Origin: a virus
Length of the DNA: 64,000 nucleotides
Strand: one strand, 5' to 3'
IMG/VR virus record: IMGVR_UViG_3300045988_126367
In this document: one piece after another, positions 26,835 to 27,369 of the stretch
How positions within the stretch are numbered: the first letter of the stretch is position 1
Layout of the letters: the number at the start of each line of letters is the position of its first letter
Notes under the pieces: generated by a model
Database searches by the model: none
What the model was told of the DNA's origin: nothing
The model's input: only the letters and a program-made list of their open reading frames with translations
Position numbers and translations under genes: made by a program

Positions 26835-27369
26835 CGTGGGGGGATATAGGGGGGTATATATAACTCTATCTCTATCTCTATCTCTGACTCTATCTATCCG
26901 TAACCGATTTCGCACGGTGTTGTAACGTCTCCGTAACATTGTTACGCCGCCTTGTCACAAATCCACACCCCAGCCCTTGAAATTTTGCTCCGTTTGTGAT
27001 ATTCTGCACATAGGAGTCAGGCAGGCCCCGTGAAAATAGCCAAAATCCCCACGGAAAACACCCTGTTTTGTCTCTCTAAATTTAACGATAATTCCCTCTT
27101 GCTTTCCCGCCTCTTTTCTGTTATACTCGCGCGCACGCGCTTGCGCCCGCGTTTCTTCCGCGCTTCCGCGCCGGTTCTATAAGATAGATATATATAATGC
27201 GGAAGATATATATACTCCTACAAGAAGATAGGAGATAGAGGGGTTTAAGGGGAGAAAGAGGGAAGAAACCGCTGTTACAGAATCGTTCTCACGTCGTTCA
27301 TCACCGTTACAACAATGTGGAACACTGTTGTAACAATGTTACGCAAGCGTTACGCGACCGTTACAACAC
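26835..27369. other. putative replication origin / iteron region
   Basis: copies of box1 and box2 from 3537-3631; CGTAACATTGTTACG palindrome (26932-26946); AT-rich GATATATATA tracts (27177-27240); GTTACAACA/TGTTGTAAC/GTTACG cluster (27305-27369); no credible ORF. Confidence 0.5.

Follow-up and report, generated by a model that had tools for sequence, protein, structure and literature searches.

Why should a piece of DNA from inside a phage replication gene be repeated, in a non-coding place, 23 kb away from that gene? This question is raised by the 64,000-nt viral sequence of IMG/VR record IMGVR_UViG_3300045988_126367 (the whole stretch analysed, hereafter the window), which belongs to a single genome of ~77 kb, that of a temperate siphophage from metagenomes of the human gut. 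In the window, DNA of the replisome-organizer gene (2951-4036) recurs within a non-coding region at 26817-27369 that we refer to as the cassette. The answer we favour, with a confidence that falls a little short of calling it probable, is that the cassette is an auxiliary, facultative locus to which the organizer binds, made out of a copy of the gene's own origin core and serving as a second origin or as a fork barrier.

An earlier note on this DNA had reported two exact boxes, in the same order and orientation, at both places, and this is the case. Box1 (CGTGGGGGGATATAGGGGGGTATAT, 25 nt) is found exactly at 3537-3561 and 26835-26859, and box2 (CCGTAACCGATTTCGCACGGTGTTGTAAC, 29 nt) at 3603-3631 and 26898-26926, with order and strand identical at the two loci and only two copies of each in the 64 kb. 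No third copy of either box was detected in the window when up to 3 mismatches were allowed, and neither occurred in 100 shuffles of the sequence. The shorter motifs are confined to the same two loci: the 9-mer TGTTGTAAC occurs five times in 64 kb (3623, 26918, 27306, 27326 and 27360; 0.21 expected) and the palindrome GTAAC-N3-GTTAC three times (3627, 26933 and 27330; 0.04 expected), all of them there. The two loci also hold 13 of the 43 GTAAC/GTTAC pentamers of the window, at spacings of 8, 11 and 22 nt. The repeats at the two loci are real and non-random.

Some details of that first description need to be changed. The homology had been limited to the boxes, with differing flanks; the boxes are indeed exact, but the homology is wider, reaching from ~3536 to 3650 in the gene and from 26834 to 26957 in the cassette. 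Both copies had been described as followed by the palindrome, which is correct (3627 and 26933), except that in the non-coding copy it comes only after an 11-nt insertion that adds one more GTAAC. Finally, identical boxes around a divergent spacer had been taken as an argument for conserved binding sites. This argument is invalid, since the spacer is a slippage-prone, hypervariable hexamer array, with 3 to 8 units among otherwise near-identical gene copies, and the combination is therefore uninformative on selection. The features of the two loci are listed below.

2951-4036, minus strand: replisome-organizer gene, 361 amino acids (PF09681, 59.6 bits, cutoff 23.3; PHROG 5968 'replisome organizer', E=2.9e-39)
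3537-3650, no strand assigned: putative in-gene origin core (repeats, synonymous-site conservation, covariation of iterons and N-domain)
3537-3561: in-gene box1, two G6+AT 11-mers
3562-3602: in-gene CT hexamer array
3603-3631: in-gene box2 with GTAAC iterons
3627-3639: in-gene palindrome, GTAACATCGTTAC
26817-27369, no strand assigned: facultative non-coding cassette, ~550 nt, between a hairpin resembling repetitive extragenic palindromic (REP) elements (26791-26815) and the ribosome-binding site of the zinc-ribbon gene
26835-26957, no strand assigned: left module, a non-coding copy of organizer-linker DNA (repeat and alignment evidence)
26835-26859: box1 of the left module
26860-26897: hexamers of the left module
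26898-26926: box2 of the left module, with an extra 11-nt iteron after it
26933-26945: palindrome of the left module, GTAACATTGTTAC
26977-27005, plus strand: promoter-like site P1, TTGAAA-17-TATTCT with TG extension (extended -10), from a promoter scan; near-invariant in four cassette variants
27099-27127, plus strand: promoter-like site P2, TTGCTT-17-TATACT, read by eye, its first hexamer being under the scanner threshold; kept in all four variants
27136-27176, no strand assigned: GC-rich direct repeats CGCGCTTGCGCCCGCGTT and CGCGCTTCCGCGCCGGTT, invariant in the cassette alignment
27175-27214, no strand assigned: AT-rich tract with two AGATATATATA repeats (27186 and 27204), a candidate DNA-unwinding element
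27218-27268, plus strand: purine-rich tract with G clusters (AGAAGATAGGAGATAGAGGGGTTTAAGGGGAGAAAGAGGGAAG), a partial match to the reverse complement of the CT hexamers
27274-27369, no strand assigned: right iteron array of six GTAAC-type sites (motif counts), conserved in all four variants whatever the left allele
27389-27853, plus strand: 154-amino-acid zinc-ribbon protein with hydrophobic segments, the first gene downstream of the cassette

The next question is whether the copy within the gene looks like an origin. The organizer scores above the gathering threshold of PF09681, and a DnaB gene directly adjoins it. A disordered linker connects its winged-helix-like N-terminal domain with a helical C-domain. 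In the AlphaFold (AF2) model, the per-residue confidence (pLDDT) is below 35 for residues 127-172; this is the linker, and the boxes fall there, with the gene copy of the repeats encoding DVTTPCEIGYG-ESESESEIESEIED-IPPYIPPRG. The best fold matches of the N-domain are weak, all of them winged-helix DNA binders and all with E >0.3, and a sequence search of the PDB gave no match. Among relatives found by whole-window BLAST or peptide patterns, and not via the box itself, synonymous third positions were identical in 12 of 12 to 14 of 14 cases in the box2 and palindrome codons, versus 60-64% (~62%) in codons 1-132. Such full conservation indicates that the DNA is constrained beyond its coding role. 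Box1 is partly explained by a conserved protein motif (IPPYIPP/IPPLPPKG), and the AT-rich DNA of this locus amounts to GTATAT and the hexamer array, outside the 12 least stable stretches of the window.

Moreover, comparison of the related contigs L023, L029 and L030 indicates that the iteron type switches with the N-domain type. GTAAC-type sites accompany the N-domain shared by the window and MT835520 and that of a 60%-identical relative (L030). The iterons of L029 are two copies of ATGTTCGCACA, and those of L023/P0111 are three copies of GGGGACATT, where the N-domain is unrelated while the C-domain and box1 are window-like. In an alignment of 37 homologues, several N-domain types are joined to several C-domain types; at least three of each are combined in these mosaics of the gene at 2951-4036, and the junction is always the acidic, hexamer-encoded linker. 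Judged from these sequences, the element within the gene has the hallmarks of an origin inside an initiator gene, for which organizer binding is predicted, and this putative origin doubles as a recombination joint in organizer genes. As a separate observation, a G6ATATAG6 17-mer with CT-rich repeats was found in the otherwise unrelated L096 (7863-7899; Alicyclobacillus ferrooxydans) and L097 (5263-5294; a metagenome-assembled genome of Eubacteriales), in L097 also followed by an AT-rich stretch. The motif, whose opposite strand encodes PPYIPP, may be widespread in replication-protein linkers.

How is the non-coding copy built into its surroundings? The gap upstream of the zinc-ribbon gene (27389) is 617 nt long and holds the REP-like hairpin and then the cassette. 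The left module carries a stop codon in the organizer frame and no protein similarity past the linker, so that the earlier description of 26835-26926 as non-coding is borne out and the copy is not the remnant of a longer gene copy. A decayed second organizer gene was likewise rejected: tblastn recovered a 46-amino-acid linker stretch only, interrupted by the stop and free of flanking homology. The AT-rich tracts reported to the right of the copy include, at 27175-27214, the 40-mer with the lowest stability in the whole window (dG -40.8 by nearest-neighbour calculation, z=4.4), the second least stable being 26857-26896 in the left module. The further motif group reported beyond them is also present, as the six GTAAC-type sites of 27274-27369. 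Five of these six are inverted relative to the left array, at spacings of 32, 24, 8, 11 and 11 nt, and they include GTTACAACA-N11-TGTTGTAAC and GTAACAATGTTAC. Phased iterons, promoter-like sites and DNA that melts more easily than any other in the window make the cassette look origin-like, a likeness that the sequence supports.

Two other candidates within the cassette were rejected. A small open reading frame at 27030-27182 has poor spacing to a ribosome-binding site and is broken by a 2-nt deletion in L086. A structured RNA leader had no Rfam match, a folding z-score of -1.2, compensatory changes in 1 of 63 pairs and a covariation term of +0.06; as this covariation test rests on four close sequences only, its power is low.

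Another important point is the distribution of the cassette, whose variants were located by using homologues of the zinc-ribbon protein (27389-27853) as an anchor. It is present in four of nine related contexts (the window, L083, L084/L103-112 and L086/87) and recurs with 100% identity in four further samples. Full-length contigs with the cassette include ERZ15609796 NODE_322 (76,904 nt), ERZ15610564 NODE_824, ERZ28615155 scaffold_369, ERZ28576094 scaffold_104 and a 76,773-nt contig of the present phage. The core of the cassette shares 90-94% identity with relatives, compared with 86-92% and 80-85% for the next two genes, and in the alignment the promoters, GC repeats, AT tract and right array are almost invariant. 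Gains of iteron units come in steps of 11 nt, and the units of one genome have been homogenised (L083). Exact-pattern scanning of IMG/VR for a second copy of box2 returned 21 contigs, each with one gene-internal copy, and a box2 21-mer gave 38 matches in metagenome contigs, all gene-internal; scans for a second copy with box1, the right array and the cassette core found no match in IMG/VR. Two scans of GTDB for relatives found none, the two matches being unrelated genes that share the G6ATATAG6 motif. The sole related entry in INPHARED, MT835520, is without the cassette. From these sequences, the cassette is conserved where present and dispensable for the phage group.

Does the cassette follow the organizer of its own genome? 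The left module exists as two alleles (GTAAC and GGGGACA), each near-identical to an organizer-gene linker. The GTAAC type is found in the window, L083 and L086, and in the window the alleles of cassette and resident organizer match (25 and 29 nt exact). The left module of L084 consists of box1, hexamers of the L023 type and GGGGACAATGTCCCC, and shares 38 consecutive nt exactly with the organizer gene of the P0111/L023 type. The last 30 nt of this 38-nt shared stretch are exactly where four Logan contigs, each from a different sample, come to an end. Contig ends at a shared stretch are the signature expected of a repeat in a k=31 assembly graph, and the four ends thus indicate that a copy of the organizer gene is present in the same samples. 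Most simply, this copy would lie in the same genome as its cassette, the pairing of the L084 type being read from assembly breakpoints. The tally is one match (the window), one inferred match (the L084 type) and one clear mismatch (scaffold_104, discussed below). A second site that follows the organizer through lagging gene conversion would fit this tally, which also leaves room for another GTAAC-binding protein.

The reading we favour starts from what is seen directly: the sequence architecture, the DNA-level constraint within the gene, the conservation and facultative distribution of the cassette, and its two alleles, which mirror two organizer alleles. From these we infer organizer binding at either locus and any replication activity. 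The primary origin would be the linker-coding part of the organizer gene, where GTAAC iterons in 11-bp phase, slippery CT hexamers and G-run/AT 11-mers sit between the parts encoding the DNA-binding N-domain and the C-domain. The C-domain presumably recruits the adjacent DnaB helicase, the presumed cargo to be loaded at the origin. The cassette combines five elements (the core copy, two rightward promoters, the most meltable DNA, the purine-rich tract and a second, inverted iteron array) and would most likely be the equivalent of SPP1 oriR. The organizer may assemble on the two facing iteron arrays, with one of two outcomes. Helicase could be loaded at the AT-rich tract, giving a transcription-assisted second origin; or a tight nucleoprotein barrier could stall forks arriving from the in-gene origin, after which RecT, exonuclease, SSB and resolvase would turn theta replication into the synthesis of concatemers. 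The genes that would serve these steps are the following.

1561-2943, minus strand: DnaB-type replicative helicase, immediately downstream of the organizer (PHROG 19, E=3.7e-97; 26% identical to SPP1 G40P, E=1e-29)
4229-4792, minus strand: SSB, in the recombination gene group 4229-8293
4792-5805, minus strand: RecT (E=1e-17 against SPP1 G35P)
7643-8293, minus strand: YqaJ/RecE-type exonuclease (E=4e-21 against SPP1 G34.1P)
952-1431: DUF1064 protein annotated as Holliday-junction resolvase, outside the group 4229-8293 and not homologous to SPP1 G44P

Several results weigh against such a role. The identity of the boxes is equally expected from recent duplication or gene conversion, which could also have produced it. 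The cassette is absent, with a short unrelated spacer in its place, from L001 (MT835520), L082, L098, L100 and L101, and MT835520 lacks it despite having the same N-domain and box2; being facultative among close relatives, it is not an essential origin. A non-coding copy of this type, the right array and the cassette core were all absent from the IMG/VR and GTDB sequences scanned. On scaffold_104 (76,570 nt), the organizer is of the GGGGACATT type, whereas the left module is of the GTAAC type. Every cassette retains the right GTAAC array whatever the organizer allele, so that a different conserved protein could bind it; together with the mismatch on scaffold_104, this leaves organizer binding at the cassette not secure. 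Nucleotide skews point the same way. The plus-strand GC skew is negative almost everywhere in 1-64000, including the block of plus-strand genes at 22.8-36.5 kb, and the AT skew flips with gene orientation across the window, a pattern which suggests a replication-linked bias in one direction over the whole window. No GC-skew inflection was seen in the window at 3.5 or 27 kb, and the skew hence gives no evidence for bidirectional initiation at either site.

The wider setting of the cassette is an accessory arm. The structural genes and the lysin run on the minus strand from 64 to 36.8 kb, followed from 36.5 to 13.3 kb by the accessory arm with tRNAs, anti-repressors, methylases, a class-V aminotransferase and a second tyrosine recombinase. 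Then come, in this order, integrase (11830-12999), repressor/cro, anti-repressor, YqaJ exonuclease, RecT, SSB, organizer and helicase. The accessory arm is where the cassette lies, with the lysis genes on one side and the integrase on the other. Two tyrosine recombinases are encoded, a XerC/D-like one by the lysin (35426-36526) and the integrase of the lysogeny module (11830-12999), which has an N-terminal zinc ribbon. The accessory arm also carries a cluster of four tRNAs at 31674-32443 (Phe-AAA, Arg-CCG, Ser-GGA and Gly-UCC; Rfam gathering score reached by three, weak call for Ser) and, at 33901-35034, the aminotransferase, which is cysteine-desulfurase-like. A 38-nt AT-rich inverted repeat (22047-22084 and 22784-22821) flanks the divergent intergenic region that joins the minus- and plus-strand blocks of the arm, and may be a shared operator. 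Just past window position 1, a DNA methylase gene is split by a LAGLIDADG-domain intein (L035, 14196-16979).

Two families of intergenic repeats were also observed. A GC-rich hairpin that starts with GTAG (GTAGGGCGGGGTGCCCTCACCCCGCC, with the variants GTAGGGGCTGGCGTCCTCGACAGCCC and GTAGGGGCGACCCTTGCGGTCGCC also present) is found in at least 13 copies over 25135-56485, for example at 32722-32755, 36710-36743 and 55211-55244. The copies are intergenic in the accessory and late regions and look like the REP elements of bacteria, an unusual feature in a phage genome. The other family (TTTTTAGCCCCGATCTCGGCGGCTATGCCGCCGTAGC...) comprises 9-10 copies of 51-115 nt with 70-96% identity and no Rfam match, at 31192-31306, 33208-33322, 36580-36694, 38722-38898, 44218-44387, 55081-55195 and 63824-63938, and inverted at 56560-56634; it could be a late-gene regulatory or terminator element. 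In the gene at 27858-29006, comparison of window 28445-28845 with L032 2058-2311 (ERZ1745232) revealed an inverted segment, 28492-28745, which truncates the protein; ~47 and 100 nt are missing at the junctions, and no flanking inverted repeats were seen. This is probably a defective variant or a misassembly.

Could the cassette serve something other than replication? It might be a transcription-control region of the zinc-ribbon operon, in which the GTAAC sites are operators for another regulator, or for the organizer acting as a repressor only, and the linker copy is incidental; the regulator would bracket P1 and P2, possibly via DNA looping. Two well-conserved promoter-like sites do face into the operon, and the right array lies between P2 and the ribosome-binding site, holds a perfect 9-nt inverted repeat and is kept in the cassettes of a phage with a non-GTAAC organizer. 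In relatives, moreover, the cassette is gained or lost exactly upstream of the zinc-ribbon gene. Such a region would nevertheless leave unexplained that two different alleles of the organizer linker are copied in the left module, and that the least stable DNA of the window, G-run 11-mers and hexamer arrays are found there; the same operon is, besides, expressed in relatives without any cassette. We consider this explanation unlikely, although it deserves to be taken seriously, and since origins and promoters often coincide it is partly compatible with an organizer-binding locus. The left module could otherwise be a functionless organizer fragment left by recombination and occasionally refreshed by gene conversion, the rest of the cassette being unrelated to it. 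Organizer genes are heavily mosaic with the linker as their junction, the phages encode RecT and an exonuclease, the copy contains a stop codon, one genome has a mismatched allele, and the cassette is dispensable. What makes such a relic distinctly improbable is that the limits of the fragment are exactly those of the cis-acting core, with no flanking coding sequence, that one site is occupied by two alleles, and that iteron units grow in 11-nt steps and are homogenised within a genome. The non-coding cassette is also more conserved than the neighbouring genes, and direct repeats 23 kb apart should be costly given a phage-encoded recombinase.

A role against other phages is also conceivable, since dairy streptococci and lactococci offer cases in which a non-coding copy of a phage ori can stop related phages (PMC6356513), a phenomenon known as phage-encoded resistance (PER). 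As a PER-like origin decoy, the prophage copy would titrate the organizer of superinfecting relatives or be amplified on infection, protecting the lysogen. Its place in the accessory arm, from lysis genes to integrase, is moron territory, and a mismatch as on scaffold_104 would suit a decoy aimed at other phages; but the phage of the window, and by implication that of the L084 type, has a cassette allele matching its own organizer, and PER needs copy number while a single copy is present here, so that we find a decoy highly doubtful. The earlier note had offered, as one of two possibilities, that an element at 13-37 kb borrows the initiator of the phage. A separate integrated element or satellite with an origin copy that hijacks the initiator would account for the second tyrosine recombinase at 35426-36526, the opposite gene orientation from 22.8 to 36.5 kb and the lack of an initiator gene in the block. 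Yet MT835520 is collinear with the window over 664-36504, and 76-77 kb contigs of relatives have the same gene order up to the lysin; the block is present with or without the cassette, and no boundaries or flanking repeats of the 13-37 kb block were seen in the window. The idea is therefore without support, and of all the explanations we give it the least credence. A broader version of the organizer-binding locus, rather improbable as a whole, is that the cassette is a portable origin module spreading among gut siphophages, whose left iterons are overwritten by gene conversion from the resident organizer allele, and which would time the switch from theta to concatemer replication or, when mismatched, act as a single-copy decoy against competitors with the other allele. 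If this were true, a second initiator-binding site that is itself dispensable would follow the rapid shuffling of the initiator.

The natural variants (cassette present or absent, two iteron alleles, matched and mismatched genomes) are ready controls for experiments. As regards annotation, PF09681 genes appear to have, in the part that encodes the linker, both a cis-acting DNA element and a domain-shuffling junction.

How do the two loci compare with known systems? Iteron-type plasmid origins, and archaeal origins in which inverted origin recognition box (ORB) elements flank an unwinding element, share with them short sites in helical phase and opposed arrays around the least stable DNA; there is no homology of proteins or sites, and the likeness is architectural only. 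The lambda ori lies inside gene O, and the organizer genes of lactococcal P335-type phages (Tuc2009 rep2009, TP901-1 orf13) contain origins. As in the window, iterons lie in the linker-coding part of the initiator gene with AT-rich DNA adjacent, which in the window amounts to GTATAT and the hexamer array, and the specificity of the N-domain travels with the iterons. The lambda and lactococcal systems differ in having a single origin and unrelated iteron sequences, and we know of no description of a second, non-coding origin copy in them. The PER systems (Sfi21, phi31, Tuc2009) resemble the cassette in having a non-coding phage ori at a distance from the replication gene, to which an infecting phage's replication proteins could bind; they are copy-number dependent and mostly engineered, whereas here a single natural copy stands beside a matching initiator.

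The closest comparison is with SPP1, which we used as a positive control: self-BLAST of SPP1 gene 38 against the SPP1 genome recovered 48 nt of linker DNA, 87.5% identical, in the gene 7/8 intergenic region, which is oriR. Both SPP1 origins consist of direct repeats together with an unwinding element that is AT-rich, and gp38 binds both; oriR lies among moron genes, between transcription signals, and gp38 on oriR has been proposed to stall the fork and so bring about a recombination-dependent switch to concatemers (PMC6316719, PMC3485210). In SPP1 and in the present phage alike, the origin core lies within the linker-coding part of the initiator's own gene (here judged from sequence only), the core recurs in the same orientation at a distant non-coding locus that adjoins AT-rich DNA, and this second locus is bracketed by transcription signals among non-essential genes. 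The DnaB-type helicase (G40P), RecT (G35P) and YqaJ-type exonuclease (G34.1P) are homologous, and both phages have recombination proteins that could serve restart after fork stalling (here RecT, the YqaJ exonuclease, SSB and the protein with the DUF1064 resolvase annotation). The initiators, in contrast, are not homologous (G38P matches PF09524 only and the window protein PF09681 only; BLASTP E=2.7), no gene for a G39P-like loader lies between organizer and helicase, the resolvase is of another family than G44P, and the phage of the window is temperate. Its second locus, moreover, is facultative and has two alleles and two facing iteron arrays around promoters. With homologous helicase, RecT and exonuclease and unrelated organizer and resolvase, the similarity would be one of SPP1-like working, and the initiator is not a member of that protein family.

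Thus the SPP1-like two-origin layout put forward in the earlier note stands in so far as the core is shared with the interior of the organizer gene and the self-BLAST control recovers oriR (PMC6316719), and is weakened by the facultative cassette, the mismatch on scaffold_104 and an organizer that is no homologue of G38P. If the cassette is functional, the SPP1 layout of an in-gene origin with a distant non-coding twin arose with an unrelated initiator family and occurs in temperate phages that are abundant in the human gut and uncultured. Such an occurrence would speak for a general role of the second site, such as triggering the concatemer switch, and against a peculiarity of SPP1. The layout is interesting and not unprecedented: a known architecture, in a new example with an unrelated initiator.

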